Source: a bacterium (GTDB lineage: Bacteria; SAR324; NAC60-12). Taken from it: a DNA stretch of 64,000 nucleotides. The DNA lies in contig CBDBHR010000003.1 in assembly GCA_965205865.1 (NCBI GenBank), positions 32,001 through 96,000 of the forward strand, in the 5' to 3' direction. Both the position numbers and the translations under genes were made by a program. The notes beneath the pieces were generated by a model. That model was not told where the DNA came from. It made no database searches and saw only the letters and a program-made list of their open reading frames with translations. Numbering within the stretch: the first letter of the stretch is position 1; every line of letters begins with the position of its first letter. Below, one piece after another: positions 3,791 to 26,513 of the stretch.

Positions 3791-3821
3791 TGATTAAAAA
3801 TCCCCAAGTCTCTCAAATCCA

Positions 3822-5105
3822 TTGGATCATGATTTCCCTTCACCATTCATGAGATCTACTATGCAATATGGAAATTGGAGATGCGCTTATTTGCTCGCAG
3901 GAGGGTTGATCTCTCTGGTGAGTAGTGGATGCGGGTATAGCGAAAAGGAATACATGGCAAAAGTAAATAGGGCCAATGAATATCAACGCTTAGCACAACA
4001 AAGACAAGCAGCCCTGGTGACCAATGAAAAAAAAGTGAAGTTTTTAGAAAATGCCTTGCAAACGTTCCAGAAGAATCTGGCGATCGCGCAAACGGAGAAG
4101 AAGCGGGAAACTGAACAAAATAAAATCAATAAATTACATTTGGACCAGAGCAGAGAAGCGTTGAAAAAAATAAGCGCGCAATTGGAAAACACCGAGGGCC
4201 GTTTGGCAAGCATGGAAAAAAATTTGGAGGAAGCATACCAAGAGCTTGCAAAAACAAATAATCAACTGAAGAGGAGAGATATCCATCTGCAACAGACGAA
4301 CATCCAACTACGAGAGAAAGACGCGCAACTGCAAACCAAAGAACGCCAACTCAGCGAAAACGCAAGCCAACTACAAAGCATCCGGCTTCAGTTCCAAGAA
4401 GTCGAGGAACGACTAACAATTGCCGGTAAGCAATTGGAAAAATCCATGAGCTTGAACAAGAATTTAGAGAAAAATGCCCAAGAGAATCTTCTGCAGATTA
4501 CCAGTATGGAACAAAAAGAAAAAAAACTGCAAAAGCAGGTCGATCAACTCAAAGAAAATGAACAGCATTTGAATGCCCAAATTCGGCAGTATGGAACAGC
4601 GTTGCATGCGGAAGAGGATGAAGCGAATACAGCACTGGAACTCCAGCAAATACTTGTGGCGTCACTGAGAGAACAGTTGGAGACAGACAAGGTTAAAATC
4701 TCTGAACTTTCCAATCGCATTGCCTTGCGTTTGGATGAAAGATTGCTATTCGATTCCGGACAAGTCTTTATCAAAGCAACGGGTTTCAAAGTGCTTAACA
4801 AAATCGGCGCAGTATTGAAAAAGATTGAAGATAAACATATTCAAGTCGAGGGACACACGGACAACTATCCAATAGGCACTAGTTTACATGGAATATTTGC
4901 GACCAATTGGGAACTTTCCGTAGCACGCGCAGTCAGTGTTGTCCGCTATTTAGTAGATGTGGTGAAAATTGAACCCCGTCGAATTTCCGCGGCCGGGTTC
5001 AGCTTCCATCAGTCTGTTGCTGATAATAAAACACCAGAAGGGAGGCAGATCAACCGGCGTGTGGAATTTACTCTCTTACCTCTGCGTATAAATGAAGGGG
5101 AATGA
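3822..5105 (+). CDS. OmpA/MotB-domain protein with long coiled coil, probable lipoprotein (start uncertain)
   Basis: Hydrophobic segment ending SSGC; heptad coiled coil; LLFDSG, VEGHTD, NWELSVARA and NRRVE OmpA_C motifs. Confidence 0.88.
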   Translation: MDHDFPSPFMRSTMQYGNWRCAYLLAGGLISLVSSGCGYSEKEYMAKVNRANEYQRLAQQRQAALVTNEKKVKFLENALQTFQKNLAIAQTEKKRETEQNKINKLHLDQSREALKKISAQLENTEGRLASMEKNLEEAYQELAKTNNQLKRRDIHLQQTNIQLREKDAQLQTKERQLSENASQLQSIRLQFQEVEERLTIAGKQLEKSMSLNKNLEKNAQENLLQITSMEQKEKKLQKQVDQLKENEQHLNAQIRQYGTALHAEEDEANTALELQQILVASLREQLETDKVKISELSNRIALRLDERLLFDSGQVFIKATGFKVLNKIGAVLKKIEDKHIQVEGHTDNYPIGTSLHGIFATNWELSVARAVSVVRYLVDVVKIEPRRISAAGFSFHQSVADNKTPEGRQINRRVEFTLLPLRINEGE

Positions 5106-5190
5106 AGGGAACGTAATCAAAAATGTCAAGGTGCCTTGCAGGTAATAGGAATCCTAATTTGCTTTTCTTCATGAAAGAATACAGGCGAGA

Positions 5191-7575: not shown

Positions 7576-7614
7576 TCTGAAAAGAATGGAGAAAAACATC
7601 GTGGAGAAAAAGGA

Positions 7615-8727
7615 TTATTGTCCCTGCGCACGGATATATTCTATTTTATTTTGCCGAATATAGCTGATAGGCCGAACTGTAACATTCTTGACCACATTGG
7701 CTGATTCAAAAAATATCATTTGGAAGGGCACTTCCTGTTTCTCATTCAGCTTGAAATTTGAACTCTGTCGTCCGCTCTTATATGTATAAAAATCCTTAAT
7801 CTTTTCCAAACTCCAAGAGGAAATTTCTTGCTCCGTCAAAACATTGCCCGCATAGACAACAGAAGTTTCTGTAATCCTCCGATTTTCATCAAAAGCCAGA
7901 CCTTTGAGTTGAATCCAACCCACTTGATCAGAAGTTGGCAGGAGATTCCGTAATTTTCCTTCAACCACAAAAAGAGTTTGTCGGCTTGTAAAATTTCTTA
8001 CTTGCTTGCTGTCCAACTCTCCCCCAAAATGAACAGGAAATTCCCTGGGATTGAGAAGATGATCGACCAAGGATGGTTCTTTCAATATCAAATAAATGCT
8101 TGCCACCAACAGTGTTGTGAAGACCACCATAAAAGTCAGTAAAGCGATGGTTTTCTTTCCCCAATTGATTCCCGTGGGCTTGACAATTTCCTCTACCAAT
8201 GACAATGGGCTTTCTGGAAATTGGAAAGAAAAATCGCGAGACTGTTCAGAAGATGTTATTTTCGTTTCGGAATCCTCAGAAATTTGGGCTGGCACTGTTG
8301 ACGATGCAGAGGGAGTTGGCGGTTCGGAATCCTTCGGAGACTCCGGATTCACATTTGAGACAAAAGAATTTTCGTAATCCTTTTTACCTTTGGCAAGAGA
8401 AGATCCGGGCTCCACGGGAGATTCATCTCCTTTGGCAGATTCCAGATTTATTGCAGGCAATACATCCTTTTCTCCACTTTTCAACCCGGTGGCTTCAAAA
8501 TAAGCTTTTTCTGCATCTGAAAGAATAGAAGAAGACGCATCCAATTCTTCGGATTCACCAGAGTTTTGTGAGGATGCGGAAGGGAGTTTTTGAAATTTAA
8601 ATACCGTCTTGCATTTCGTGCATTTGACTTTTGAAACTTTTTCAGAAAATCGTGATTCGTGAACTCGATATTTTGTGCCACAATTGTCGCATCGAATCGA
8701 GATTTTAGCCTCTGAAGAAGAAATCAT
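7615..8727 (-). CDS. MJ0042-type zinc-ribbon membrane protein with DUF3426-like C-terminus
   Basis: N-terminal CDNC...VKCTKC, low-complexity linker, one TM helix, beta-rich C-terminus (LFVVEGKLRN, YAGNVL, VPFQMIF). Confidence 0.75.
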   Translation of the reverse strand: MISSSEAKISIRCDNCGTKYRVHESRFSEKVSKVKCTKCKTVFKFQKLPSASSQNSGESEELDASSSILSDAEKAYFEATGLKSGEKDVLPAINLESAKGDESPVEPGSSLAKGKKDYENSFVSNVNPESPKDSEPPTPSASSTVPAQISEDSETKITSSEQSRDFSFQFPESPLSLVEEIVKPTGINWGKKTIALLTFMVVFTTLLVASIYLILKEPSLVDHLLNPREFPVHFGGELDSKQVRNFTSRQTLFVVEGKLRNLLPTSDQVGWIQLKGLAFDENRRITETSVVYAGNVLTEQEISSWSLEKIKDFYTYKSGRQSSNFKLNEKQEVPFQMIFFESANVVKNVTVRPISYIRQNKIEYIRAQGQ

Positions 8728-9081
8728 AGCAACATCATTCTGTTCGTTAAAGAGATCCTCGAGAAAGATTTAATTTGCCGAAATTGTAACACATTTCAGG
8801 GGTATTTCAAATCCGGATCCCAGGTCGACCGAAGCCATTTCCCTTTTTTGTGTTGTTAACTTAGTTTTCAGTAGTGGATTTTTTCGAGAAATAATGATAG
8901 CCTTTATAGTTTTTCAAAATGCTAGACAAGCAGGTGCGTGTTGATCAAACAAGTTTACTCAATCTCTCAAAGGGATCTGCTGGCCAATGATGGCCTGTTA
9001 AGGTAGGGTTTCGTAGAGGGGTTGAATGGGATGCATGTCTGAGGGTTAATTTATCCGACCATTTGAATTGAGACGAAGCAT

Positions 9082-9396
9082 ATGTTTCCATTGATACCAG
9101 AGGCAATGGCGCAAAGTGTCGCAGGATCTCTGACTGAGAGTCCCCTTTTTGGGATGATTCCATTTGTTCTTATTTTTGTTGTTTTTTATTTCTTGCTGAT
9201 TCGCCCCCAGCAAAAAAAGCAAAAGGCCTTACAACAGATGATTCAAAATCTGCAAAAAGGAGACAAAGTGATTACAAGTGGAGGGGTCCACGGCACCATT
9301 TTCAAAATGGGAGAATTGGTGCTAACTTTGGAAGTGGCAGAAAAGGTTCGCATTCAGGTAGATCGTCAGCAGGTAGCTCGAGTCGTGGAGAAGTAG
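9082..9396 (+). CDS. yajC: Preprotein translocase subunit YajC
   Basis: FYFLLIRPQQKKQK and LQKGDKVITSGGVHG; directly upstream of secD. Confidence 0.96.
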   Translation: MFPLIPEAMAQSVAGSLTESPLFGMIPFVLIFVVFYFLLIRPQQKKQKALQQMIQNLQKGDKVITSGGVHGTIFKMGELVLTLEVAEKVRIQVDRQQVARVVEK

Positions 9397-9461
9397 TAGA
9401 TGACACTTCATCACTTGGAGAACATCTTCAATATATATAAACTTCAATTCGATACAGTTTT

Positions 9462-11033
9462 ATGGATTTACGTCTAAAAGGGTTGTTGATTTTTGCAGTT
9501 CTGGCAATCAGCGTTTACTATTGTTTTCCAACTTACATGGCCTATCGGGAAGGGGGCAATCCTCAGGAAGTGGATAAAAAAGTCAACCTGGGTTTGGATC
9601 TTCAAGGCGGCATGTACTTGGATATCGAAGTCATCATCGATGAGGCGGTTATCGCAGTCCTGCAAAGGACTGCTCAGGAGTTGGAAGATCTATTCATTGA
9701 CAACCAAGTGGATTATTTGAATATCGAAGTGATCCATAAAAACCAACTGCTCGTCGAGTTGGCAGCTGATGAAGTAGTGGATCTGGAAGACTCGCCTTAT
9801 GAGCGGTTTTTAGTTCAATTCGATCTGGAGCAAAATGCGGACCAGAAGATATTGACGTTGCAAGCTTCAGAAGCGGACCGCATTAAAAGAGGCGCCATAG
9901 AACTGGCATTGGAAGTAATAAGGAATCGTATTGACCAATTCGGTGTCACGGAACCAACAATCCAACGTCGGGGAGACAACAGCATATTGATTCAGTTGCC
10001 AGGTTTAACTGAACGAGAAAGAGCCATTGATCTGATTGGAACTACAGCCGTACTTCAATTTTTTCTGGTGGAAGATTACGCGACTGAAAATAATTACAAC
10101 CCCCAAACCTCCACTGTGAAATTCGAAGAAGAAATCGATCCTGCAACAAATGAAATTTTACGGCAAATCCCCTATGTCCTGGAAAAGAAACCGGTACTGA
10201 CAGGAGAATTCATTCGCGATGCTCAGGTACGGTTTGATCCTAACGACAACCAGCCCTACGTTGGTTTGTCCTTTGATTCTATTGGGGCAGATCGCTTTGC
10301 CAAAATTACCCAGAAAAATCGAGGACGCCGTTTAGCGATAGTCTTAGATGGCAAAGTCCAATCTGCTCCGGTTATTCGAGAAGCCATTACAGGCGGAGAG
10401 GCATCCATTTCGGGCTTATTCACCATCGACGAAGCCAGCAATCTGGCTTTAGTTCTGCGTTCAGGCGCATTGCCCGCCCCTATCGAGATTCGGGAGGAAC
10501 GCACTGTGGGAGCTAGTCTTGGGGAAGACTCGGTTCGGCAAGGATTGATTTCCTTACTGATCGGAGGGTTGATTGTGTTGATTTTCATGATGATCTATTA
10601 CCAGGTCTCCGGTGTGTTTGCCAATGCGGCGCTTCTATTCAATATTATCCTGGTGGTGTCCGTATTGGCAGGATTTGAAGCCACATTGACGCTTCCGGGG
10701 ATGGCAGGAATGGTCTTGACTCTGGGGATGGCAGTGGATGCCAATGTTTTAATCTTTGAACGGATTCGTGAGGAATTAAAACGTTACGGACATCCCCGTG
10801 CCGCAATCAATGAAGGATTCAGCAAAGCATTTTTAACAATTGTAGATGCCAATATTACAACGTTATTTGGAGCTTTGGCTTTATTGCAGTTTGGCAGAGG
10901 TCCGATCAAGGGCTTTGCTGTGACTTTGTCAATCGGAATTGTAGCTAGTATGTTTACTGCAATTGTGGTCACCCGCTTTCTGTTTGAAGTGATTTATTTG
11001 AACCGTAAGCAATTAAAAAGCATTAGTATATAA
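9462..11033 (+). CDS. secD: Protein translocase subunit SecD
   Basis: LGLDLQGG, RIDQFGVTEP, GMAVDANVLIFERIREE. Confidence 0.97.
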   Translation: MDLRLKGLLIFAVLAISVYYCFPTYMAYREGGNPQEVDKKVNLGLDLQGGMYLDIEVIIDEAVIAVLQRTAQELEDLFIDNQVDYLNIEVIHKNQLLVELAADEVVDLEDSPYERFLVQFDLEQNADQKILTLQASEADRIKRGAIELALEVIRNRIDQFGVTEPTIQRRGDNSILIQLPGLTERERAIDLIGTTAVLQFFLVEDYATENNYNPQTSTVKFEEEIDPATNEILRQIPYVLEKKPVLTGEFIRDAQVRFDPNDNQPYVGLSFDSIGADRFAKITQKNRGRRLAIVLDGKVQSAPVIREAITGGEASISGLFTIDEASNLALVLRSGALPAPIEIREERTVGASLGEDSVRQGLISLLIGGLIVLIFMMIYYQVSGVFANAALLFNIILVVSVLAGFEATLTLPGMAGMVLTLGMAVDANVLIFERIREELKRYGHPRAAINEGFSKAFLTIVDANITTLFGALALLQFGRGPIKGFAVTLSIGIVASMFTAIVVTRFLFEVIYLNRKQLKSISI

Positions 11034-11043
11034 AAGAGGATGA

Positions 11044-11955
11044 ATGCGAATTCTCAAGGAAGTTACTCATTTTGATTTTCTTGGAAAAAAGATGATTGCA
11101 CTGATTGTTTCAGTATTGCTCATTCTGATGGGGACTGTCTCAGTCGTCTATCACCAAGGGTTTAACTATGGCATTGATTTCAAGGGTGGATTTCAAGTAA
11201 GAATCAAATTTGAGCGAGCAATCGACTTGAATGCATTGCGCAAACAGTTTGATCGTCTTGACATGAATTCCACCAGTCTGCAGACCATTGGAGATACAAA
11301 TGAGGTCAAACTGGTCTTACCATTGAATAATCCTTTGGGAACGGGATCTGAATTGACGAGTAATCTGAAAGAATTGTTGGCCGGTGATTATCCGAAATTG
11401 GAGATACGCAGCGTAGAAAGCGTGGGACCACAAGTGGGTGATGAATTGAAGTTGAGCGCCCTTTATGCAATTTTGATTGCGCTGGGATTGATTTTAATTT
11501 ATATCACCATCCGCTTCCATTGGAAATTTGGAATCAGCGCGATTTTAACATTGACCCACGACGTGGTGGTAGTGGTAGGATTTTTTTCTGTGTTTGACAA
11601 AGAATTCACGCTCCCAGTTGTTGCTGCATTGCTCACCGTAGTGGGATATTCCCTCAATGACACCATTGTCGTTTTTGACCGAATACGGGAAAACATGGCT
11701 CGCTTTCGTAAAAAAAATTTAGAAGAAGTGATCAATCTCAGCATCAACGAAATTCTGAGCCGCACTATATTGACTTCTGGTACCACTCTTTTTGTAGTGT
11801 TGGCTCTGTTTTTTCTAGGTGGAGAAATCATTCATGATTTCGCCTTCGGAATTCTGGTGGGAATTGTTGTAGGAACCTATTCTTCCATCTATGTGGCAAG
11901 CCCGCTACTTCTTCAAATGAGTGTCAAAGCCCCTGCTCCCAAAACCCAGAGCTAA
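11044..11955 (+). CDS. secF: Protein translocase subunit SecF
   Basis: GIDFKGG, VGPQVG, GYSLNDTIVVFDRIRE. Confidence 0.97.
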   Translation: MRILKEVTHFDFLGKKMIALIVSVLLILMGTVSVVYHQGFNYGIDFKGGFQVRIKFERAIDLNALRKQFDRLDMNSTSLQTIGDTNEVKLVLPLNNPLGTGSELTSNLKELLAGDYPKLEIRSVESVGPQVGDELKLSALYAILIALGLILIYITIRFHWKFGISAILTLTHDVVVVVGFFSVFDKEFTLPVVAALLTVVGYSLNDTIVVFDRIRENMARFRKKNLEEVINLSINEILSRTILTSGTTLFVVLALFFLGGEIIHDFAFGILVGIVVGTYSSIYVASPLLLQMSVKAPAPKTQS

Positions 11956-14430: not shown

Positions 14431-14554
14431 TGACCTCTTTGCGGCGCTGAAGTGGAGCAGCCGCATAGTTCTTTAAGCAAGCCATTCGCGCAGTTATCCG
14501 CTCAGTTTTCCTTTGAACGATCGAGCATTGACGGCTCAAGATGTGGAGTGAAAC

Positions 14555-14997
14555 TAGTGCTTGACCGAAAAATACTCAAATTGCTGATATTAAATGACAA
14601 TTCTTCAATTTCACAGGATGAAGATTGGTTTGATGCAGTGTTCAGATGGCCAGACTAGCGAGAGTGGTCCTTCCTGGCGTTCCTCATCATGTCAGCCAGA
14701 GAGTGGCTCTCTCCATGGAAATCTTTTCAGCTGATGAGAATTGCAGAGAGTATCTCTCATTTCTCAAATAGCATGGAGAAAAAATAGTTTGTGCTTGGCA
14801 GAAAAATACTCAAATTGCTGATATTAAATGACATTTCTTCAATTTCATTGGATGAAGATTTGTTTGATACAGTGTTCAATTGGCCAAAATCAGCAAAAAA
14901 TAGGATTTTTGATGAGTTTCGCCAAAATCTTCGTTTCTTGAAAATAGGTGAATACCATTAAATATCATGTAGTTATCTAATTTTCGGTCAAGCACTA
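14555..14997. mobile_element. Non-autonomous element (MITE-like) built from ends of the ISNCY-like element at 56514-58191
   Basis: Perfect 17-bp terminal IR TAGTGCTTGACCGAAAA / TTTTCGGTCAAGCACTA. Segments starting at 14555 and 14791 both match the reverse complement of the 58191 end (gtgcttggccgaaaaatactcaaattgctgatattaaatg...). Confidence 0.85.
14646..14790 (+). pseudogene. N-terminal fragment of a Y1 (IS200/RAYT-like) transposase
   Basis: Translates MARLARVVLPGVPHHVSQRVALSMEIFSADENCREYLSFLK*, a typical N-terminus of this family, followed by stops. Confidence 0.7.
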
Positions 14998-15080
14998 ACT
15001 AAGTAAGCACTGTCTTGGTGAGCAGAAGATACTTATATTAGCGACAAACCAAGTCGATAAAAGTAAAAGAAGGATTTCCA

Positions 15081-16826
15081 CTAATTCACCACGATAATTT
15101 CCTCTCCCAGCATATCCACGATTTTCACCGCCACTCTCGCGTCGGCGTGGGGGAGCGTCAGTTCATACCAGCCCCGGATAAAATCGGTCTTCTTTTTGGG
15201 CAGGTCGCTTTCCACGATGTTGAAACTCCTGTCGTTGTAATCGGTGTCGATCAGCACACAGTCGATTTGCGCCCGGAAATCTTCAATCTGCTCATCAAAG
15301 AGCGTTCTGTCTATTTCCATCCTGGCAAGGATGGATGGGCTGATGTAATCAATTATCTTCACCGTAGCTTTTGCGTCTTCCTTTGTAATCTCTACGATCG
15401 CCTCCGCGGGTTGATCCGTTATTACCCCGTCCTGCTGAATATCACAGATGGTGATGCGGTTTATCGGGGTTTTCTCTTCAGCCAGTTCAGTAATGATCCC
15501 CATTTCACTGCCATTGCAGAAAACTGCAATATCACGTGTTTCATCCGGCCGGTTGTTTTGAATTTCATCTTTTATAATCTGAATATCCAACCGGGTCAGC
15601 GGCCTGTTCAAATCCAAAATTTTCACCAACTGCCCCCCGACGGTTCCGTCGAAAAACAAGTCCTTCCGGTCTGTCTGAATACCGTATTTGGAGACAATGA
15701 TTTTCTTCAGTCTGTCCTGTTTGGCGAAGTCGTAGTTATTCACTCGGTAATGGATGAAGCCACGTCTGTTTTTCTCCACAAGATCTTCGTTTTTTTTTGC
15801 AATGACAACCTGCAAGCGTTTGATGGTGGTTTGAATTGCGCCCTTGTTCAAATCCGCCATGATCCAGCGACGGCCCAACTTTTCCGCGACCACAGCGGTG
15901 GTGCCACTACCACAGAAGCAATCCAGGACGATTGAATCTTCATTGCTTGAAGCTTTGATGATTCGTTCCAATAGGTCTTTAGGTTTTTGGGTGGGAAAAT
16001 CTGATCTCTCTGTTTTGTCTAAAGGATTTATTATGGGTATATACCAAGTATCTCTTCGGAGTATGAAAGTATAAGTGCCATTTTCATCTACAAACCATTC
16101 TCGCTCTGCATTTTTTAGTTTTTCCTTCCCTTCTCTTTTACCTTGAACATACTTCTTTTCGTCTTTTGATACATTGAAAATTGCTTTGTCTGTCTTGCTA
16201 TATAAAAATATGTTGTCATGTTTTTTTGCGAACCCTTTTTCTCCTGCTCCTCCGGAATAATAGTGCCAAATCACTTCATTTATAAAATTCTCTTTTCCAA
16301 ACACCTCGTCCAGCAAAAATCGCAGGTGATGGCTTTTGTGCCAATCACAATGCAGATAGATGCTACCATTTTCGCTCAGCAATTCCCGCATCAGAATCAG
16401 CCGTTCATACATGAATTGCAAATAGTTATCATTGGCCCAGATGTCCACGTATTGCGCCTGCTCGATGGAAGTGTGTCCTTCCCCTTCCAATTTTTCAGTT
16501 TGTCTGCGCAGTTTCACTCTACGTATATAATCCGCGCCGGAATCAAAGGGAGGGTCAATGTAGATCAAATCGATCTTTCCCCGGAACCCGGCAATCAACA
16601 GCGAGGAGAGAATCTCCTTGTTGTCTCCATGAAAAAGCAGATTGTAATCGCTTTTCACAAATTCCGAATAAGACGGCTCAGCCGGTGGATTGTCCACGCC
16701 AACGGTCTCGCATAGCTGCGCCGGGAAATGACGCACCACGTCCAACGGTTTCTTATCAAGCCAATGCAGCATCTGGCGACCCTTGATGGGGGTGATTTTG
16801 AGGGGTTTCTTTTTCGGCTCAGTCAT
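15081..16826 (-). CDS. mod: Site-specific DNA methyltransferase, beta class (type III Mod-like)
   Basis: IYIDPPF (motif IV) precedes FPTQKP and LDCFCGSGTT (motif I); C-terminus VAVKIVDMLGEE. Confidence 0.9.
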   Translation of the reverse strand: MTEPKKKPLKITPIKGRQMLHWLDKKPLDVVRHFPAQLCETVGVDNPPAEPSYSEFVKSDYNLLFHGDNKEILSSLLIAGFRGKIDLIYIDPPFDSGADYIRRVKLRRQTEKLEGEGHTSIEQAQYVDIWANDNYLQFMYERLILMRELLSENGSIYLHCDWHKSHHLRFLLDEVFGKENFINEVIWHYYSGGAGEKGFAKKHDNIFLYSKTDKAIFNVSKDEKKYVQGKREGKEKLKNAEREWFVDENGTYTFILRRDTWYIPIINPLDKTERSDFPTQKPKDLLERIIKASSNEDSIVLDCFCGSGTTAVVAEKLGRRWIMADLNKGAIQTTIKRLQVVIAKKNEDLVEKNRRGFIHYRVNNYDFAKQDRLKKIIVSKYGIQTDRKDLFFDGTVGGQLVKILDLNRPLTRLDIQIIKDEIQNNRPDETRDIAVFCNGSEMGIITELAEEKTPINRITICDIQQDGVITDQPAEAIVEITKEDAKATVKIIDYISPSILARMEIDRTLFDEQIEDFRAQIDCVLIDTDYNDRSFNIVESDLPKKKTDFIRGWYELTLPHADARVAVKIVDMLGEEIIVVN

Positions 16827-17593
16827 GCCACATACCTTTCAATATCGGACATAACCCCTTCTTGAAGATCAGTGAGATTCGGGTACTGCTTGTCCGCGTT
16901 CCTGGTTAGATAAGTGACTTCTTTGTTTCCCAGATCCAGCATATTCTCGTATACCACCAGACTGATAAAGGGAAGATTTGCTTTTTTGAACTCCAGCAAT
17001 GCGATCGCCGTACTTTTTGCCTTGTCGTTCCCGATCACTCCAAAGAGGTAGAATTTACGGTTTTTGTAGCTTAAAGACCAATCTACGGTGAGAATTCTAT
17101 AGTCCGGGAGAGGAAGGTCATCTTGTTTAGGATCAAATTTCTCCAACTCTTTTGTGGCATACTCTTTCAAGTCCTCGTAGAATGTGGAACGGACATTTTC
17201 TCTGCTCCAATAGCGCATATTGCAGACTTTTTGTACGCAGCCAGCAAATTGAAGTACACTCTCATAAAGCATTTCCAGAGTCGTATCCAAATAAAGATTC
17301 CCTTCCTCATTTTGAACGTCACTGTTTATCAGAATGCTTTCAAATATTTTCTGGCGAGAATTCGTATTTAATTCATAAGTGTATGAAAGACGCATGACCG
17401 CCATGCCAAAGTCGCAGATACGAATATGGTTTTCGCATTCAGGGCTATCTTGCAGATAGATATCCACCATATCACCGTCTTCATGGCGAATAGGAGCGAT
17501 AAGCTGGAATTTTCCCGGTCTCCGCTCATACACATCAAAGCCAGTTCGGGTTTTTTCGCGGAGTAAATTCAGGGCTCGGTCAATTTTCATCAT
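16823..17593 (-). CDS. DUF1828-like domain protein
   Basis: APIRHEDGDMVDIYL...IRICDFGMAVMRLSY pattern. The stop overlaps the mod start (ATGA). Confidence 0.7.
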   Translation of the reverse strand: MMKIDRALNLLREKTRTGFDVYERRPGKFQLIAPIRHEDGDMVDIYLQDSPECENHIRICDFGMAVMRLSYTYELNTNSRQKIFESILINSDVQNEEGNLYLDTTLEMLYESVLQFAGCVQKVCNMRYWSRENVRSTFYEDLKEYATKELEKFDPKQDDLPLPDYRILTVDWSLSYKNRKFYLFGVIGNDKAKSTAIALLEFKKANLPFISLVVYENMLDLGNKEVTYLTRNADKQYPNLTDLQEGVMSDIERYVA

Positions 17594-18080
17594 GATTTAG
17601 ACTCAAACTCATCTGGCGTGATTCAGGAAAGTACTCTAAATAATTTATTACGCCAATGTCACCAAAGAAAACTTCGAGAGCTTGCTCAAAGGTATTATAT
17701 CCGTTCGTAATTTCTCTATACTTTTCCTGTGGTTGCGTACTACCGGAATCCATTTCCGTAGCGGTCATGCGATGTATGTGGGGTTTATCATAATGACCAT
17801 TCTGGGATCGACTTGTTTCTCCATGTGGGCCGTTATAGCGCACGAGCGTGATCGAACCCAGCTCACTATTGTTGGTTTGATAACGTAAACCAATCGAGTA
17901 GTTTTCTATAAAATTATTATTTTGACGAATAAAAACCCAAAATGACTCGCCTTCTTGGTTTTGCAAAGTCAAGGCACAACGTTTGTGATTGTTTTCATCC
18001 TTGTATCCCGTATTAGGAACTTTTCTCTTTATCTCCTTGGGAGATCGTATCAGGTCTTGAATTGCTTGATCTGTCAGCAT
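17580..18080 (-). CDS. Hypothetical protein of the type found upstream of DUF1828 genes (DUF6978-like)
   Basis: YSIGL...TLVRYNGPHG...KPHIH His-rich motifs; overlaps the next gene. Confidence 0.6.
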   Translation of the reverse strand: MLTDQAIQDLIRSPKEIKRKVPNTGYKDENNHKRCALTLQNQEGESFWVFIRQNNNFIENYSIGLRYQTNNSELGSITLVRYNGPHGETSRSQNGHYDKPHIHRMTATEMDSGSTQPQEKYREITNGYNTFEQALEVFFGDIGVINYLEYFPESRQMSLSLNHDEN

Positions 18081-18128
18081 AGGACATGTTCGCTTCCTGC
18101 CTATAGATTTTAATTTGATTTTTCAGCC

Positions 18129-18584
18129 TCAAGTTGAAAAATATGTAAAGACAATAATGAGAGTTAAAAAAAGAAAAAAGAAGATCAAGGGAAGAAAGGT
18201 TTCAACAATGGTGAGCTTCCAATAACGACTTTTATTTTTTCCTTCCTCCAATAACTCCCATTCACGCTTGAAAAAGGGATAGGCAAGTTTTTTTTCTAAC
18301 TCATGTAAAGCATCAAATTTTCCTGTATTGAGCTGACGATAGGAACGGATGACAACAAACCACGATACAGAAAGTAAAATTCCCAAAATGCAAAAAGCTG
18401 TCAAAACTGATTTAACATGAATAATTTCTGAGCCATATCTGAGAAAAGTAGCAAGGACAAGGACAATTCCCGTTAGCAGACTGACATAAAGCCTGTTAGC
18501 TCCTTCCCTTCTTTGGCTCACCCGGTCCGCGAGTTCGGCATGGAGTTTGTAGATTTCCAAAAGTTCCTGTCTGTTTCCGTCCAT
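18129..18584 (-). CDS. Small 3-TM membrane protein (possible pore-forming effector, RipA/8xMP-like)
   Basis: Three hydrophobic segments; ADRVSQRREGANRLY and SYRQLNTGKFDALHELE motifs; TAATG coupling to the upstream TIR gene. Confidence 0.65.
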   Translation of the reverse strand: MDGNRQELLEIYKLHAELADRVSQRREGANRLYVSLLTGIVLVLATFLRYGSEIIHVKSVLTAFCILGILLSVSWFVVIRSYRQLNTGKFDALHELEKKLAYPFFKREWELLEEGKNKSRYWKLTIVETFLPLIFFFLFLTLIIVFTYFST

Positions 18585-18993
18585 TATGCTAACTCCCTTA
18601 TCGCTGAGACAATGCTGTCAGTGTTCCACTTAACAATTCGGGACGCGTTACTTTTAACAATCCGAGATGTTTTCTCACTGCCCCAAGGTTCTACTGCTAC
18701 AATAGGTTTTGGAGTTGTAAATTCCTTTTGTGCTATTTGTATCTCTTTCTGTATCCACTTGCTGTAGGTTGCATAAACTCCTGCTAGTATGAGAGCGACA
18801 CTACAGGTTGCATTTGCCGCAAAATTGCTTCATACAATTCCTTGTCAGTTCCCGACGTGTGTAATGGATCATCTTTCGGCACAGAATAATTTTTGAAGGC
18901 AAAGTAGGGTCTTTCCCTCAATAATATTTCCAGTTTTTCATAAATGTCCGAATACGCCCAAGAATGGCTGATAAATAAATTATAGGTTCTCAT
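18584..18993 (-). pseudogene. ThsB-like TIR (DUF1863) protein 2, with a 1-nt frameshift near 18805
   Basis: MRTYNLFISHSW...RQMQP continues in another frame as CSVALILAGVYATYSKWIQKEIQIA...KWNTDSIVSAIRELA*, with TAA at 18584-18586. Confidence 0.85.
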
Positions 18994-19019
18994 GTCTGTC
19001 TCCTTAATTTAATGCGAGT

Positions 19020-19490
19020 TTAACCAATCGATAATTGGTTTGATTTTCTCTGCTCTTGTTTAAAGTTCCTGTCTGATTTCGTCCATTGGGCTAACTCCCT
19101 TATCGCTGAGACAATGCTGTTGGTATTCCAGCCAACAATCTGGTCGGCATGATCTCGGACCTTCGCAGAGATTTCATTTGTACAAGGCCGTAAAGCAAGA
19201 ATAGGTTTTGGTTTCGAAAAGCCACTTTTAGCAATCTTGATTTCCTTGTCTATCCACTCACTGTACTCAGCATAGACTCTCGCTAAAACGATTACGATAC
19301 CGCATGGTTGCATCTTATTGTGGATTACCTTGGATAACTGTTTGTCTGTACTATCAAGCACGGGAACTTTTTTGGGGATGGAGTGGTTGTGATAACGAAA
19401 GTTGTTGGCTTGTTTCAATAGATTGACCAAGTTGCTGTATTGGTCATGGTATGTCCAGGAGTGGCTGATAAATAAATGGTACGTTTTCAT
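19020..19490 (-). CDS. ThsB-like TIR (DUF1863) protein 1
   Basis: LFISHSW, YSEWIDKEIKIA (putative catalytic Glu), KPIL, VGWNTNSIVSAIR. Confidence 0.85.
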   Translation of the reverse strand: MKTYHLFISHSWTYHDQYSNLVNLLKQANNFRYHNHSIPKKVPVLDSTDKQLSKVIHNKMQPCGIVIVLARVYAEYSEWIDKEIKIAKSGFSKPKPILALRPCTNEISAKVRDHADQIVGWNTNSIVSAIRELAQWTKSDRNFKQEQRKSNQLSIG

Positions 19491-19500
19491 ATCTACCTCA

Positions 19501-22098
19501 TTATGAGTTTTTCCAATCTATAACTGGTTTTAATTTTTCTGCGCTTATCGTGGTAGCAGACGTATAAACGACGTGGTACTTGAATTTATCCGGTTGTAAA
19601 TTTTGCAGCCGTTCCACCGCTTTTTGCTTTGCTTCCACCGTTTTATCACCACGCTCGTTCTCGGTCTTGACCTCGACAATGTAAAACTCCCCCGTCTCTT
19701 TCACAAGCACAAAATCGGGAAAGTAGCGATGATAGCGTTTGTCTTGGCCCATATATTCGAAATGAAAGTCGGTTTTCCTGGGATCGGTCAAACCACCGGT
19801 GAACAGAAAGGCTTCCACGTCGTCGGGGTCCGTATTGAGATTCGACAAAATCTGCCGAAAGAAGGAACGCTCCGGCTCGCTGTCGAAGTTGTAAGGCGTG
19901 TAGTGAAAACTCAAATCGTACTTGTCTGAATAGTGCGCACTTTCAGCTAAAAGTCCGTTGTTCTTCATCTGATCATACGTCCTCTTGAGCAAACGCAAAC
20001 GGTGGACGTAAACACCATTCTCGTCCTTTTCAAAAACGTCCTTTCCATTTTCATCCTGAACCCGAATCAGCGCCAGGGCAACGGTGATCTTTTCTTCAAC
20101 GGTCTTGTAGTTCGCCTGCTGCTTTTCGACCTGCTGAAACAGTCCGTATAATTCACTATTTTGTATCTCCCCTTGTGGATACAGACTGTTGAGCCTCTGC
20201 AAAACCGGCATGACCGGAAGATGGTATCTCGAGGCGATTTTCCAGGAGGCGGTATGGCAATCCGTGGTTTCTCTTTCTGCAAATAGTTCCTTAGTGTCAC
20301 CTGTCGGCATCAGTATTTCTCCCGGTCCGCTAAAATCAGGAGTCAGGATGTTACGTAGAATTGCTGGGGTCTTCTGTGGTTCAGGTCGTTCCAGCGTGAT
20401 ATTACCGTCAGGTGTTTCGCTGCGGACAGCCCGCTTGACGGTGCGGGATATTTCCAGTTGCGGCAACTCCGTTTTAACGATTCGCAGGGTTACGCTCTCT
20501 TTGTCCCTTGCTCTGGCGCTGAGCCGGTCCAGATCGGTGCCGAAATTGTCCTGTAATTCTTTATCCAACGTTCTGGCATTTCCGTAGTCCAGAAATATCT
20601 TTGCGGAATGCTTGTTTCCCGGGATCTGGCGCAGGCAACGTGTTGCCGCCTGGAGGACATAGTTGTTGCTGGTTGTTTGCTCTTTGATAAGCGCGCAGGC
20701 AAACAGGCTGGGACAATTCCATCCTTCCACTCCTTTGGCGATCAGCAGAATGACGCGCTTTTGATTACCGGGATTGTTGAGACGCTTGAATTCGTCAACT
20801 TGCGACACGTCCGATTTTTGCGTGTTGACCAAGACCTGAGAGGCGCTTTCTCCAATACCCGCCATGGCCTGCTCGATCAGTAGCCTTGAGTCTTCCAGAT
20901 GTTCCTGCGTCTTGAAATAAAAGGCAATCTTCGCTCTTGCCCCGTTGGGAAGTGTCACGTCCCCATAATTCGTGAAAAATTCTCTGATGATGTCGTGGAA
21001 CACTTCCTGTTCGGGTTGCTCGCCGATGTCGTATTGATGAATCCCGTGAGTGAGGTCCTTCAAGATGTTGTCTTTGATGCCTTCCCCCAGCCCATACCAG
21101 ACGATGACCTCTTTCAGGTGCTGTTTCTTGTAATAAGGCGTTCCGGTCGTGTTGACAACAGCGACTATCGGTGTTTGCTCATGGATGTAGTTGATGGTTT
21201 CCCGCACCCGTTTCAACTTGTCAAAAGTGTTTCCATAGGTGTGATGCGCTTCGTCAGAAAAGACTCCGGGATTGGGCAAACTGGTAATTTTTTGCAGTCT
21301 CAGATTGGCTTGCAGCTCCTCACGCTCGAACGCCCATTCCGTCTGGTTGCTTCTTCTATTGGCACGCAGGCTGATCTTCTCGGTGTTGGTGACAATCAAA
21401 TTGTAACCGCTGCCTCTCTGCGCCTGTATGTCTTTTTCACTGCCGGGATACTCGATCTTCAAATTTGCGGCAAAATCGCGTTGGAGGTCGGGTGGCAGAA
21501 CCTGCTCATAGGGCATGTCGCTGAGTTCCCGCAGGCTTTCGATGATCGTCGTACCGGGTGCAAAGACTAGAGCATTTTTCATAAATTTGCCCTCGGGGTA
21601 ACGGAGAGACATTGCAAACTCGGTGGCGACTATCGTCCCGATCAGCACGGTCTTTCCCGCACCCATGGCCAAGGCGAGGATGTAGCTCGGATAGGGGAGC
21701 ATTGCAGCTTCATGCAAAGCCTGAATTCTTTTTTCAGTTACGAAAGCCGGATCGTCTTTGACTTTCTTGACCACGTCATCTACTTAAGCCCACTCCAAAG
21801 CGTCGCTTGACATCGAAATACCAAGCGAATCAAAAAAGATTTTTTTATCATGCCCGTAGTAGCGCTTATAGAGGTCCAGAATATGAGGGGTTCCCAATTT
21901 CAAGCGGACGTACCAGTAAGTTTCAAGAGCAAGAAACTGGGGTTCACGGAGAAATTTGAAGGTTGGTTCACCTGTTTCTGTTTCAGACTCCATTTGCCAG
22001 GCGAGAATTTCCCCGATGAGTGAGTATTCATCGCAGGCATATCCACCTTTGCGCCATTCAAAGGCGGATTCTTTCAACTGATCGAAGAGGGATGGCAT
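19501..22098 (-). pseudogene. res: Type III-like restriction subunit (SF2 helicase plus PD-(D/E)xK nuclease), split by one in-frame TAA at 21784-21786
   Basis: ORFs 21784-22098 and 19501-21774 share a frame (...GAG TGG GCT TAA GTA GAT GAC GTG...). LAMGAGKT, DEAHH, EGWNCP and YFPDF...IVEVK motifs. Confidence 0.85.
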
Positions 22099-22170
22099 TT
22101 AATAAATTCCGATTTGATGTTATGATTGCTTAAAAAATAATGAACCATTTTCCTCTTCATAGTCCACACC

Positions 22171-23376
22171 TTAAGCTGTATCTTGTTGTAGTTTTTCTAA
22201 TGATGCGATTGCACTGCTTAAATTTGACTGAACATCACACCCATATAGATTTTCGAAACTCAACTGTTTTTGTGTCACCAAGTGTGCCAATCGTTTTTCA
22301 GTAAAAAAATATTCACAATAGGGTAATGCTAAAGCTGCGTGGAAAAAGTCATGGACGTCATGGCCTTGAAATTTATGCCTTTTGTCCCAACGTACGGCGG
22401 CATACAATGCCGAGATAATATGTATTGCCGGCATTGCTTTGCCTACTTTATCTAGTCGGAAGAGATGGTAAATAAGCACCTCCAGTTTGGTTTTAGCTCG
22501 ATGCTCCCTTGCTTCATTCTCCGATATAGTTTTTCCTGTTGTTTTCTGAAACAGATCTTCCATCATGTCAGCCAGAAGATCACGATAACTCATGATATAA
22601 CCGCTAACTTCATCCAGAAACATTTGTTTGGAACTTTGTGCTTCATCTTGATGTTCAATTTTTTCTTTATTAAGCTTATTGGCTATATCAAAATCAGATG
22701 GAGGCTTCAGCCCACCATTTTTCGCCATGACATCAATCATTTGAGACATGGATAGAAACCACAGGTGATCTAAAAATGCTTTCCGGTGGATAATGTTTTC
22801 TTCAGAACTCATAAAACTTAACTCTGGTACTGGAAAAGCATTTGAAGTCACGTGACAAGCAAGCTTAGTCCAAATAAGCTCCTTTGTCTCGTATACTTTG
22901 CCAATTTTGCCTATAATTGAATACAAAATATGTCTAATTTCTGGCTTTACATTTCCTGGGATTAGCCGGTTTTGCAAACTGGAAAGCGTTGAATACAAAA
23001 AGTGTCGAATTTCCAGCTTTACACGCTCATCATAACCCACTGACATTACGCCGTTGGACAACCTATCTATCAGCTCTGCGGTCACTTTCAGAGTTTTAAC
23101 ATCAGTTTGCTTCATAACCTCCATGAAAACATCTTCACTAATTGGGAATATGCAAATTTGATAAGCCGAAAGCTCAAGAGCCAGATTGAGCAATGTATTT
23201 TCTAGTTTATTCTTTTCAGGCTGGAGGTAACCTTCTCGGAGGAGCAACCAAAACTTTGTATCAAGATAGACAATTTTTCTGTCCAAAATTTGCTTTGAAA
23301 GCTCCAAACTTAGCGAATAATAATAGTCCTCAATTGATTGTTCAGACATTGACTTGTTTGTTTTCGGGGTAGTCAT
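22171..23376 (-). CDS. Hypothetical protein with possible PIN-like fold
   Basis: IVYLDTKFW, FPISEDVFMEV and C-terminal DVHDFFHAALALPYCEYFFTE have PIN-like spacing of acidic residues. Confidence 0.5.
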   Translation of the reverse strand: MTTPKTNKSMSEQSIEDYYYSLSLELSKQILDRKIVYLDTKFWLLLREGYLQPEKNKLENTLLNLALELSAYQICIFPISEDVFMEVMKQTDVKTLKVTAELIDRLSNGVMSVGYDERVKLEIRHFLYSTLSSLQNRLIPGNVKPEIRHILYSIIGKIGKVYETKELIWTKLACHVTSNAFPVPELSFMSSEENIIHRKAFLDHLWFLSMSQMIDVMAKNGGLKPPSDFDIANKLNKEKIEHQDEAQSSKQMFLDEVSGYIMSYRDLLADMMEDLFQKTTGKTISENEAREHRAKTKLEVLIYHLFRLDKVGKAMPAIHIISALYAAVRWDKRHKFQGHDVHDFFHAALALPYCEYFFTEKRLAHLVTQKQLSFENLYGCDVQSNLSSAIASLEKLQQDTA

Positions 23377-23522
23377 CCGTGTACTTCGACAGTTTTTTAG
23401 AAAATAGCATATTCGTTATTTTTACCAAACAAAAGTTTCAAAGGTGAATTTCTGTTAGTCGTAAATCGTAGTAATCTTGAATTAACATTTTTTCGACGCT
23501 GAAGCGAGTCAAAAGGAGGCAC

Positions 23523-24072
23523 TAATGTATTGCCTGTTTAATACATTGTAATATTGGTCATTTGGTAGACAGGTTTGAGTTTGTTGATAATTTCTTCGGC
23601 AGTTTTAGTCTGGACATAGGGTTTTGGGTTGCGATTGTGCGCCTCGATGTAACTATGGATGGCTTCGGTCAACTCGAGCACGCTTTTGAAGGCGCCTCGT
23701 CGAATCCGTTCTGCAGTGATCTTGCCAATAAAGCGTTCCACCATGTTCAGCCATGAGGAAGAAATAGGAATGAAATGCTGGTGGAATCGCCGTCGCCACT
23801 TTCCAACGGAATTGCCGCTGTTTCCAAGAGTTTGGGCAATCTCTTGATTCTTAAGGCCATCAGCAGCCAACAGGATGATGCGCGCACGAAGAGTGTCTCG
23901 CATCACTCCAGTTTGACAGCGTGCGGTTTTGCTCAATTCATCCCGTTCTTCCCGGGTCAGTTTAATACTTGGCGCTTTCCTCATGCTGTCTCCTTATATG
24001 CAAAAAAAAGAACAGCTTGTAGTATAGCAAACCAAGGAATTATTTACACATTAATAAAAGGGCGACATATTA
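23523..24072 (-). mobile_element. Internally deleted IS630-family element
   Basis: ORF 23538-23984 joins the N-terminal HTH (LRARIILLAADG...VGKWRRRF) directly to the C-terminus (HFIPISSSWLNMVERF...HNRNPKPY). TA at both ends. Confidence 0.85.
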
Positions 24073-24801
24073 GTGAACCAGGCGTCCGCCATCCACCGGC
24101 AAAACCACCCCTGTTAAAAAATCGCCGTGGAGGAGATAATCCACTGCATTGACAATATCCTTGGTTGAACCTCTCCGTTTGAGAAGGCTTTGCTCGATAG
24201 CCGCCTGTTGATCAATATTACTACCCGGGGGAGATGGAAGCACATTTCCGGGAGCAATCGCATTCACATGAATCTCCGGTGCGAGAGCTTTGGCCAAGCC
24301 TTGGGTCAAAGTGACCAAAGCGGATTTTGTCAGGCAATAGGGTAAAAATTGGGTCCAGGGCCAAAACGCGGCGACATCGGCGATGTTGATTATTTTTCCT
24401 TCTCCAGTCGCCTTCATTTGCTCCCCGATTGTTTGAGACAAAAAAAAGGGCGCTTTCAGATTGAGATCAAAGAATCTGTTCCATTGTGTTTCCGTAACCG
24501 AAAAAAAAGGTGTGGGATAAAATGTCGCCGCATTGTTGATCAGTACCGAAATAGAACCCATGCGCTGCCGGGTCTGCTCCAGCATTTGTTGCAACTCCAC
24601 CAGATTGGCAAGGTCTGCCTGAAAAAGATGATGCCGCAGATGCCCACCCTCCATTTGGGCCAAAGTAGTTTGCGCGCCCTGGAAAGATTGATGATAATGA
24701 ACAGCCACCCGCATTCCCCGGGATGCAAGGTAAATAGCAATTTGTTGCCCCAAACGAATCCCGGCACCCGTCACCAAGGCAGTTTTTCCCGTCAGTTCCA
24801 T
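24070..24801 (-). CDS. Short-chain dehydrogenase, pteridine reductase/FolM-like
   Basis: TGAGIRLG, LINNAATFYPTP, YCLTK, VNAIAPG, VDGGR. Confidence 0.85.
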   Translation of the reverse strand: MELTGKTALVTGAGIRLGQQIAIYLASRGMRVAVHYHQSFQGAQTTLAQMEGGHLRHHLFQADLANLVELQQMLEQTRQRMGSISVLINNAATFYPTPFFSVTETQWNRFFDLNLKAPFFLSQTIGEQMKATGEGKIINIADVAAFWPWTQFLPYCLTKSALVTLTQGLAKALAPEIHVNAIAPGNVLPSPPGSNIDQQAAIEQSLLKRRGSTKDIVNAVDYLLHGDFLTGVVLPVDGGRLVH

Positions 24802-24817
24802 AATTTTTCAATTACTA

Positions 24818-26513
24818 CCTAAATCCTGCAATTAGATGACAATCAAACATGGAAATGGTAATATACTCAAATAGTTAACACAAGAATCAACATTTTAAGA
24901 GATCACCATTTCCATGAAAAACAAAGGTAGCGCAAGATCGGCAAGAACGACAGCAAAAAACATCCATATCAGCCAGGGAGGCAGAGACCTGACCGCGCAA
25001 GCAGGCTTGATTCCGGTTGTCAAATTTTTTCACAAAGAAGGGATTGTTTCAAAGACAGAGCAGACCGTAGATCATCGGCGTGGCGCCACGGGTCTTTATG
25101 ACGCAGTGGACATGGTCATTTTGTCGGTGGTCGGCATTGTTGGCGGCGCCCGTTCGATTCGTTCGATTGTGACAGTTTGGAACGACCGTGTTTTGAGTCG
25201 TGTGGCCGGTTGGCTGAGGATTCCGGATGAAACCACATTCGGCCGGATACTGCGTACTTTCACACAGAAAAACATCAATGAGATGGAGAGCTTGAACCAT
25301 CGGATTCGAGCCGGTATCTGGCGTAAGGCGCTTCGAAGTGGGACAAGCATCGTTGGGGTGTTACACTGTCTTGTGATTGACGTGGACTCCACTGTGAAAA
25401 CGGCCTACGGCAAGCAGCAAGGAGTGTCTGTCGGATATAATCCCCACAAACGCGGTGCAGCTTCGTATCATCCTCTGCTGGCATTTTGCGCAGAGACAAA
25501 GGAGATTCTTCAGGGTTGGCTTCGTGATGGGAGTGCCTATACCAGCAATGGAATCGTTGAATTCATGCGGCAACTTCTTGCTCACCTTCCAAATCGGACT
25601 CGCATTCTGTTTCGTGGAGACAGTGGTTTTTTTGTGGGGGATTTGCTGGATTTCCTCGAAGAACGAGGCCATGGCTATCTGATCAAGGTCAAACTCAAGA
25701 GGCTTGTCTCGTTGTTGGAAACCCAAAAATGGCAAAAAGTGAAGGGGCAGCCCGCTTGGGAAGGGTGTGAGTTTTCCCACCAATGTAAAACTTGGAGGAG
25801 GTCAAGAAAATTCATGGCCGTACGCAGGGAGAAAGAGGAGGAACTCAAAGGGATGGCCACCCTCTTTGAGATGAAGGAGTACGATTATTTTTGTTATGTT
25901 CTCACCGATGCGCTCACTCCCTGGCAGGCTCACAAAGAGTATGGCCAGAGGGCGGTCGCTGAGACATGGATTGAGGAAGCAAAAAATCAAACTGCGCTGG
26001 CTCAGATTAAAACCGACGATTTTTGGGCCAACAGTGCCTTGTTCCAATGCGCGATACTCGCTTACAACACGCTGCGCTGGATGGCCCTTTGTAGTGGTAA
26101 CGCAATACTGCGCCGTTGGGAACCGGCCACCATGCGCACCTATCTTGTCCGAATGGCAGGAAAATGGACGAGTGGCGCTCGTCAACAAAAACTGAGAGTT
26201 CCGGAAAGAACACTTTACAATGCTCAATGGGATGCATGGGTCGCTGTTGGAGAGACCTGGATCCTTTGTTTCACTCCAGTGGAAACGTTTTGCTGAGATG
26301 TCGATCCCCAAATCCAGGGAGAAGTACGTCTTGAATCTTGTGCCCGCGAAAGCGGGTATCAGATCATCACAAAATATGACGATCAAATGGAGGGCGGAAA
26401 AACCTTTATGAGCAAGGACTGATGGAAATTCAACTCTCAAATCCTTTTTTTTAAAAAAACCTCTCAAAGAGTGAAGGGAAACTCAATCAAAATATTCAAT
26501 TGCAGGATTTAGG
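24818..26513 (+). mobile_element. Intact IS1380-family insertion sequence
   Basis: 16-bp IR CCTAAATCCTGCAATT / AATTGCAGGATTTAGG; 5-bp target duplication TACTA on both sides. Confidence 0.93.
24914..26296 (+). CDS. IS1380-family DDE transposase
   Basis: LTAQAGL, IDVDST, GYNPHKRG..SYHPL, FRGDSGF, YGQRAVAETWIEEAK. Confidence 0.92.
   Translation: MKNKGSARSARTTAKNIHISQGGRDLTAQAGLIPVVKFFHKEGIVSKTEQTVDHRRGATGLYDAVDMVILSVVGIVGGARSIRSIVTVWNDRVLSRVAGWLRIPDETTFGRILRTFTQKNINEMESLNHRIRAGIWRKALRSGTSIVGVLHCLVIDVDSTVKTAYGKQQGVSVGYNPHKRGAASYHPLLAFCAETKEILQGWLRDGSAYTSNGIVEFMRQLLAHLPNRTRILFRGDSGFFVGDLLDFLEERGHGYLIKVKLKRLVSLLETQKWQKVKGQPAWEGCEFSHQCKTWRRSRKFMAVRREKEEELKGMATLFEMKEYDYFCYVLTDALTPWQAHKEYGQRAVAETWIEEAKNQTALAQIKTDDFWANSALFQCAILAYNTLRWMALCSGNAILRRWEPATMRTYLVRMAGKWTSGARQQKLRVPERTLYNAQWDAWVAVGETWILCFTPVETFC

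Follow-up and report, generated by a model that had tools for sequence, protein, structure and literature searches.

Positions 15081..23376 of the window (the 64,000-nucleotide stretch of contig CBDBHR010000003.1 analyzed here) carry a locus that is best explained as a type III-like restriction-modification (RM) operon with a variable slot between res and mod. The slot holds a predicted Thoeris-like cassette of TIR genes and an 8xMP-family membrane protein gene, followed by a DUF6978-DUF1828 pair matching the PADLOC candidate system PDC-M24. Both modules are likely anti-phage and occur elsewhere, and we judge this account as a whole to be rather probable, with the cargo modules probably being passengers of the RM genes and not their guards. 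All genes lie on the minus strand, and the eight of them are co-oriented in the order given by a first-pass annotation of this DNA: PIN-like gene, res, TIR1, TIR2, 8xMP, DUF6978, DUF1828, and mod. The tight packing from res onward that it described, with gaps under 50 bp or overlaps, is likewise found (spacings of 10, 26, -1, 48, -14, and -4 bp, after 72 bp between the PIN-like gene and res), as are the overlap motifs TAATG (18586-18582) and ATGA (16826-16823). Its description of the five genes between res and mod as uncharacterized does not hold, as these match ThsB_TIR, 8xMP, DUF6978/PDC-M24A, and DUF1828/PDC-M24B (Pfam, PADLOC) and form two modules, TIR + 8xMP and DUF6978 + DUF1828, that also occur away from the present RM family. 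GC content is 0.38 to 0.42 in the cargo, 0.49 in res, and 0.45 in mod. Among sequencing runs of other studies (numbered with X), a contig of X2 links mod, DUF1828, DUF6978, and 8xMP, and contigs of X2 and X3 link res with the PIN-like gene, that of X3 also with TIR1, which shows that this gene order is no artifact of assembly.

The comparison of the slot draws on 52 other res loci (numbered with L), of which 3 were found via an 8xMP query, 1 in a metagenome, 1 in a relative, 1 on a plasmid, and 46 through phylum and genome searches. Three partial res matches were omitted, L107, L124, and L134 (no mod on the contig) are outside the 49 loci used for slot counts, and L065 is outside alignment A2. 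Taking a slot as filled when at least 400 bp separate res and mod, we observe inserts in 32 of the 49 loci and shorter distances in 17, and 29 of 46 slots remain filled after removal of the three loci found via 8xMP. The expectation that mod and res are normally adjacent thus fails here, and the observation that the first-pass annotation had named as speaking against its proposal, that homologous res/mod loci never carry such cargo, is not what these loci display. Pfam scans of 52 of the 85 cargo open reading frames (ORFs), with a subset scanned by PADLOC, recover toxin-antitoxin pairs of HigB, ParE, and PIN type, TIR-TPR proteins, DUF6932, and DUF2971, along with defense-type genes: DUF3644 (PDC-S19), DUF5343 with a HEPN gene (PDC-M34A and PD-Lambda-3B matches), and a NucC-like gene. 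Further cargo matches the profiles PDC-M63A and PDC-S31. TIR-TPR fusions recur in the slots of Poribacteria, in many cases following a HigB-like toxin-antitoxin pair (slots of L098, L108, L117, L118, L119, and L126). On the res tree, filled loci are intermixed with empty ones, and close relatives differ in what their slots hold; the junction of res and mod is a site of turnover with swappable cargo. In the available passages of a study of embedded defense genes, co-oriented variable cargo lies between the core genes of 62.7% of Hma loci, comparable to the 32 of 49 seen here, whereas those passages cover no type III RM and the PADLOC REase_III profiles miss the res family of the window (10.1101/2024.01.29.577857).

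The first cargo module comprises two ThsB-type TIR genes and the 8xMP gene. TIR1 (19020..19490; PF08937, E 4e-14) has lost its stop codon, and TIR2 (18584..18993; Pfam and PADLOC matches) is frameshifted by a missing base near 18805. PF08937 and ThsB matches are accompanied, as in Thoeris, by a conserved glutamate (WIDKE/WIQKE column), which TIR2 keeps in the shifted frame and which we take to be the catalytic residue. The 8xMP protein (18129..18584; PF24838, E 2e-36) is intact, 151 amino acids (aa) long, with three hydrophobic segments by hydropathy and an all-helical predicted model (predicted local distance difference test [pLDDT] score of 77). Predicted as four copies it scores 0.44 against 0.00 for the best control, with contacts agreeing in at least 83% and pLDDT of at least 69; of the structures used to set the mark for self-association, 20 of 30 solved pairs and 1 of 23 single chains attain it, figures that apply only roughly to 8xMP. 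This modeling supports self-association, and 8xMP is the likely effector. Basic residues R25, R26, and K89 are conserved outside the hydrophobic segments.

The 8xMP family counts 2354 representatives at an E value of ≤0.001, and the 8xMP query listed at least 73 genome loci, so that the counts given here and below are those among the matches listed. A TIR gene lies upstream of 8xMP within 1.1 kb in 46 of the 73 loci and downstream in none, a conserved adjacency of TIR and effector gene that is also characteristic of Thoeris; 30 of 39 TIRs at 8xMP loci are full length and without stops. Record titles of these loci name mostly Poribacteria, Latescibacterota, Acidobacteriota, and Chloroflexota metagenome-assembled genomes, lineages that are presumably sponge symbionts. 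Among 37 plasmid matches to 8xMP, 6 were opened and 4 of these carry the TIR + 8xMP pair (two proteobacteria, a cyanobacterium, and a haloarchaeon), and the pairing occurs across many phyla. The SIR2-SLOG and Macro effectors of type I and II Thoeris are absent from the eight genes by Pfam and PADLOC, and 2 of 99 8xMP homologues match SLATT_5 (best E, 0.027), SLATT being the effector of type VII. Sequences of solved structures gave no match to 8xMP, a fold search only generic helical bundles, a cluster look-up of 10 distant 8xMP proteins no names, and a literature search in an incomplete collection no paper on TIR-8xMP pairing or on the res-mod slot. TIR + 8xMP is most likely a Thoeris-like abortive-infection cassette lodged in a defense hotspot.

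Variants of the module are seen elsewhere. The same genome carries a second TIR + 8xMP pair, about 35% identical to that of the window (L135, G000:C18, 2564-5182, minus strand), followed by a SIR2-domain gene with Dsr1/ThsA-like matches. In L001 (697-1722), a protein with TIR_2 and Ig-like domains replaces the ThsB-type TIR before 8xMP, and the 3' end of the old TIR remains. Nine Poribacteria loci (L034, L036-L039, L041, L043, L046, and L050) place 8xMP without a TIR immediately behind a heavy-metal P-type ATPase-like gene, and two of the nine retain a TIR-end remnant.

Systems of TIR and small membrane effectors are established by experiment, and the available sections of the survey by Yirmiya et al. 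describe 29 putative Thoeris types, with seven new ones verified, including a type V effector (ThsF) that has three helices, forms rings, is labeled DUF2270, and responds to 3'cADPR (10.64898/2025.12.03.692087). The window cassette shares with type V, as described there, a stand-alone PF08937 TIR directly upstream of a three-helix membrane protein, with the membrane helices and homo-oligomer being predictions in our case, and several TIRs per effector likewise occur in type V (10.64898/2025.12.03.692087). It differs in that its likely effector scores as 8xMP (PF24838), for which no link to DUF2270 was found, and in lying within an RM operon. We give a little under an even chance to the possibility that TIR + 8xMP is itself type V Thoeris (ThsB + ThsF, signaling by 3'cADPR), with 8xMP being what that study calls DUF2270, or another of the 29 cataloged types; this would be compatible with the account that we favor and would remove most of its novelty. 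Favoring such an identity, ThsF is described in those sections as three-helix, ring-forming, TIR-linked, and widespread, and the profile search of TIR clusters there used Pfam v32 (10.64898/2025.12.03.692087). By eye, two canonical DUF2270 loci have no obvious TIR neighbor, and a loose motif spacing (Y..R..N / YR..N..LE..P) is common to both families. Pfam v32 is older than PF24838. So widespread a TIR-8xMP pair, we infer, was probably caught by the survey under some label. Against the identity, DUF2270 does not appear among the families that sets of 24 and 99 8xMP homologues matched (the best 25 of 29 and the best 25 of 117), and profile-profile comparison of 8xMP with DUF2270 (hhalign, four tries) gave probabilities below 1%, with 9 and 12 of 40 shuffles reaching the score. 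None of the four tries was significant, but the DUF2270 alignment was narrow, which makes this a weak test. PF10028 had no match in 61 genomes of the Poribacteria phylum and exceeded the cut-off in 2 of 121 of an alphaproteobacterial class.

It is also conceivable, though quite improbable in our estimate, that no diffusible signal is involved and that the TIR activates 8xMP by contact or is itself an NAD+-depleting effector. The small size of 8xMP and its lack of a recognized nucleotide-binding domain are consistent with this. However, in the available sections of the Thoeris survey, stand-alone ThsB-type TIRs beside small membrane effectors are shown to signal, with pockets predicted between protomers (10.64898/2025.12.03.692087), and the basic residues retained by 8xMP outside its hydrophobic segments also count against this alternative.

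The second module consists of DUF6978 (PDC-M24A; 17580..18080), with a conserved RYNG..H..HIH motif, and DUF1828 (PDC-M24B; 16823..17593), both recognized by Pfam and PADLOC. DUF1828 usually precedes DUF1829. DUF1828 has relatives in 45 of 151 genomes from the Poribacteria phylum, and in 10 of 20 other loci a DUF6978-like ORF with the RYN..H..HIH residues conserved lies directly upstream. As in PADLOC's definition of PDC-M24, adjacent genes match both profiles in the same order, whereas the PDC-M24A match is modest here (E 1e-5). We found no functional test of PDC-M24 in print, and "M24" appears 0 times in the main text, as available, of the paper on these candidates (10.1101/2024.01.29.577857). 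DUF1828 matched neither sequences of solved structures nor plasmids, and a fold search with the DUF6978 model (pLDDT 70) was uninformative (best Z, 5.0). In the parts of its description available, HipAD/DS-6 is likewise a two-gene defense pair, the second gene carrying DUF1829 (PMC13092281), whereas the pair of the window has no kinase, has DUF6978 as partner, and gives no DUF1829 score. This analogy weakly suggests a toxin-antitoxin-like module.

The first-pass annotation had proposed that the inner genes may guard the RM complex, pointing to PrrC in type I RM as a backup defense. On such a model they would, like PrrC in EcoprrI, be silenced by the Res-Mod complex and released when a phage inhibits it. 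The PrrC precedent of a gene embedded in an RM operon, the tight and partly overlapping gene spacing, and the neighborhood of the closest relatives are in keeping with such a role: TIR/8xMP genes, intact or broken, occupy the slot in seven loci (L001, L003, L061, and L090-L093) and L089 keeps a deleted remnant only, together eight of the nine nearest res relatives (not L094). A guard would be expected to be tied to its RM system, and the slot counts are contrary: TIR + 8xMP lies in this res-mod slot in 3 of 73 8xMP loci and outside it in 70, and DUF6978-DUF1828 is found in 0 of the 49 other slots. PrrC is almost only found embedded, whereas the present cargo is mostly found outside. Moreover, no PrrC-type ATPase is present, and 8xMP and PDC-M24 persist intact beside a res that reads as broken. 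The guard model is therefore not supported, and we consider it highly improbable.

The RM genes themselves are type III-like. The res gene (19501..22098; ResIII, 24.7 bits) forms one frame of 865 codons that an in-frame TAA interrupts at codon 105 (21786-21784), and it encodes superfamily 2 (SF2) helicase motifs (MGAGKT, DEAHH, RCLR) and a C-terminal PD-(D/E)xK nuclease (PDF..EVK), as in type III Res. PADLOC REase_III profiles match neither this res nor the intact res of L003, the matches outside that set being ResIII and BPTD_3080, both weak. The mod gene (15081..16826; MTase_III, E 8e-65) is intact and encodes a beta-class N6-adenine methyltransferase with motifs DPPF and FCGSGTT and, as in type III, a variable target-recognition segment (residues 190-275), which has no counterpart in 7 of 9 close loci and matches along only 27 residues in the other 2. 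Classical type III systems (EcoP15I and EcoP1I) share the SF2 helicase-nuclease and the beta-class adenine methyltransferase with a variable recognition segment; the canonical order is mod then res, whereas here res is divergent, precedes mod (in 49 of 49 homologous loci), and is interrupted in this copy. Type III enzymes characteristically cut DNA, at the expense of ATP, between unmethylated sites in inverse orientation. Only 1 of 60 relatives of the source genome has a near-full-length res match (G044, 48%), and a metagenome scan with res gave one locus only. Res homologues at 74 to 78% lie in other phyla, suggesting horizontal transfer. The same genome holds a second type III RM system (L138, G000:C29:495000-512000, 3483-11942, minus strand; mod 737 aa, res 896 aa), whose res matches REase_III and which has five genes between mod and res. 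Fragments of additional copies of the window locus lie elsewhere in the genome, namely a DUF1828 end fused to a mod start (L137, 6383-6675; 87% DNA identity) and res pieces at 86 to 90% identity beside transposase-like genes (L081, 1448-1842; L083, 1504-1740).

Repeats between the genes record how cargo may be added. A 78-bp direct repeat spanning the 3' end of a TIR and the start of 8xMP (19062..19139) is 87% identical to 18560-18637, and a scar at 19009..19086 contains an 8xMP-start remnant, MDEIRQEL*, followed by a res-end remnant, AEKIKPIIDWLNSH*, lying between the two TIRs; the real res end reads AEKLKPVIDWKNS*. The res end with the TIR start is also repeated (19450-19546 versus 18953-19057, 72% identical). 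Like scars are found in L003, L092 (153 bp, 92%), and L093 (54 bp, 93%), whose first TIRs are 76 to 80% identical to TIR1, and control stretches within res show no such repeats (L001 was without a control). Repeats occur in 16 of 33 cargo intervals, 7 of which are internal TPR repeats and are not counted as scars. The scars suggest that TIR1 was acquired when the locus recombined with a variant of itself. The simplest history would be a tandem of two variant loci, res-TIR1-8xMP and res-TIR2-8xMP, followed by loss of the stretch running from the first 8xMP up to the end of the second res.

The first-pass annotation spoke of repairing the proteins, which only implied damage; three genes are in fact damaged, by the stop in res, the single-base frameshift in TIR2, and the lost stop of TIR1, whose reading runs 21 residues on. 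TIR1 also carries substitutions (G>R, W>C, and D>V) at alignment columns otherwise conserved in close homologues and is likely decaying. Contigs of X1, X2, X3, X7, X6, and X8 have a sense codon at 21786, and contigs of X2, X3, and X8 (three studies) have the extra base at 18805; those of X2 and X3 are diverged from the window by only a few percent and thus represent close strains. One X7 contig agrees with the window at 21786, although this site lies only 15 bases inside the contig end. The genome's coding density of about 0.8 does not discriminate real breaks from errors, and joints across the TIR repeats in read data resembled other organisms and were excluded. As read here, restriction and TIR2 are likely off in this copy, and the methylation gene, 8xMP, and PDC-M24 are intact.

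Such damage raises the alternative that the slot acts as a neutral sink in which selfish or decaying genes collect, the window locus being a relic with little defense left. Besides the three damaged genes, this would fit the cassettes that are broken, partial, or partly deleted in L061, L089, L090, and L091, the toxin-antitoxin pairs and transposase common as cargo, the insertion sequence (IS) remnants flanking the locus, and the res fragments elsewhere in the genome. We consider it unlikely, as close strains of other studies read res and TIR2 intact and most TIRs at 8xMP loci are uninterrupted.

Several observations nevertheless weigh against the account of an anti-phage cargo slot. Cargo that does not look like defense occurs (a transglycosylase, a peptidase C26, and a transposase), 24 of 52 cargo proteins have no Pfam match, and the loci are dominated by related Poribacteria and are non-independent. 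No TIR lies upstream in 27 of the 73 8xMP loci, some of which keep a TIR-end remnant, and several Poribacteria copies of 8xMP stand alone behind another gene. Of the 8 loci whose slot holds TIR/8xMP genes, only 4 show scars, and no contig bridges 21786 or 18805 with the window's letter, so the breaks may be assembly errors.

Upstream of res lies a 401-aa PIN-like hypothetical gene (22171..23376), a neighbor but no fixed part of the locus, as none of the 52 other res loci has it close to res. Its family, which has no name, counts 106 homologues, also in Vibrio and Photobacterium; D39, E86, and D343 are invariant and E360 nearly so, with the acidic motifs split by a long insert. The PIN label given at first reading draws on these motif-like acidic residues, four of which characterize the PIN fold, and on weak Pfam PIN matches in 2 of 39 homologues (best E, 0.011); a profile search against sequences of solved structures found no match. 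PIN identity is plausible but unproven, and the protein may be regarded as a candidate defense nuclease. A promoter and terminator scan stayed at chance level (18 versus 15.1 and 6 versus 8.4). Directly downstream of mod, a short repeat element (14552-14652 and 14785-15000) has dozens of genome copies at 90 to 99% identity and is possibly a miniature mobile element. The PIN-like gene is preceded by an internally deleted IS630-like element (23511-24076), and an IS1380-like transposase (24914-26296) adjoins an ftsI-like gene apparently truncated at its 3' end.

In the mechanism that we envisage, the RM genes would form the first line and the cargo independent abortive-infection layers. Upon phage infection the TIR would convert NAD+ to a signal of the ADP-ribose type, the kind by which Thoeris effectors are activated, that opens or assembles an 8xMP membrane oligomer, so that the infected cell is arrested or killed, and two TIRs may widen what is sensed. 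DUF6978-DUF1828 would likely act as a separate toxin-antitoxin-like module, a part of the scheme that is weakly supported. Cargo would gain from shared transcription and transfer with the RM genes. It would enter when variant copies of the locus recombine at res-end and TIR-end sequence that they share, and would later be trimmed by deletion. The layered anti-phage locus with abortive infection first proposed for this DNA is supported in this form by inference, from the defense-profile matches of both modules and the defense-type genes in homologous slots.

Embedding and TIR-membrane systems have both been published already, and current thinking is not overturned. Our results widen guilt-by-embedding to include a family of type III-like RM systems that a standard profile set does not call, offering 32 filled slots of candidate cargo, and the scars indicate that a TIR sensor can be added before an existing effector. 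The TIR-plus-membrane cassette is small and testable and has intact relatives. A bolder possibility, to which we assign a low probability, is that TIR + 8xMP is an uncataloged Thoeris type having a signal and a pore of its own, and that the divergent res-mod family acts across phyla as an exchanger of cassettes between sponge-symbiont lineages, with recombination at the conserved res-end/TIR-end stacking new TIR sensors before one shared effector. If true, the slots of this exchanger would be a fresh source of defense systems.

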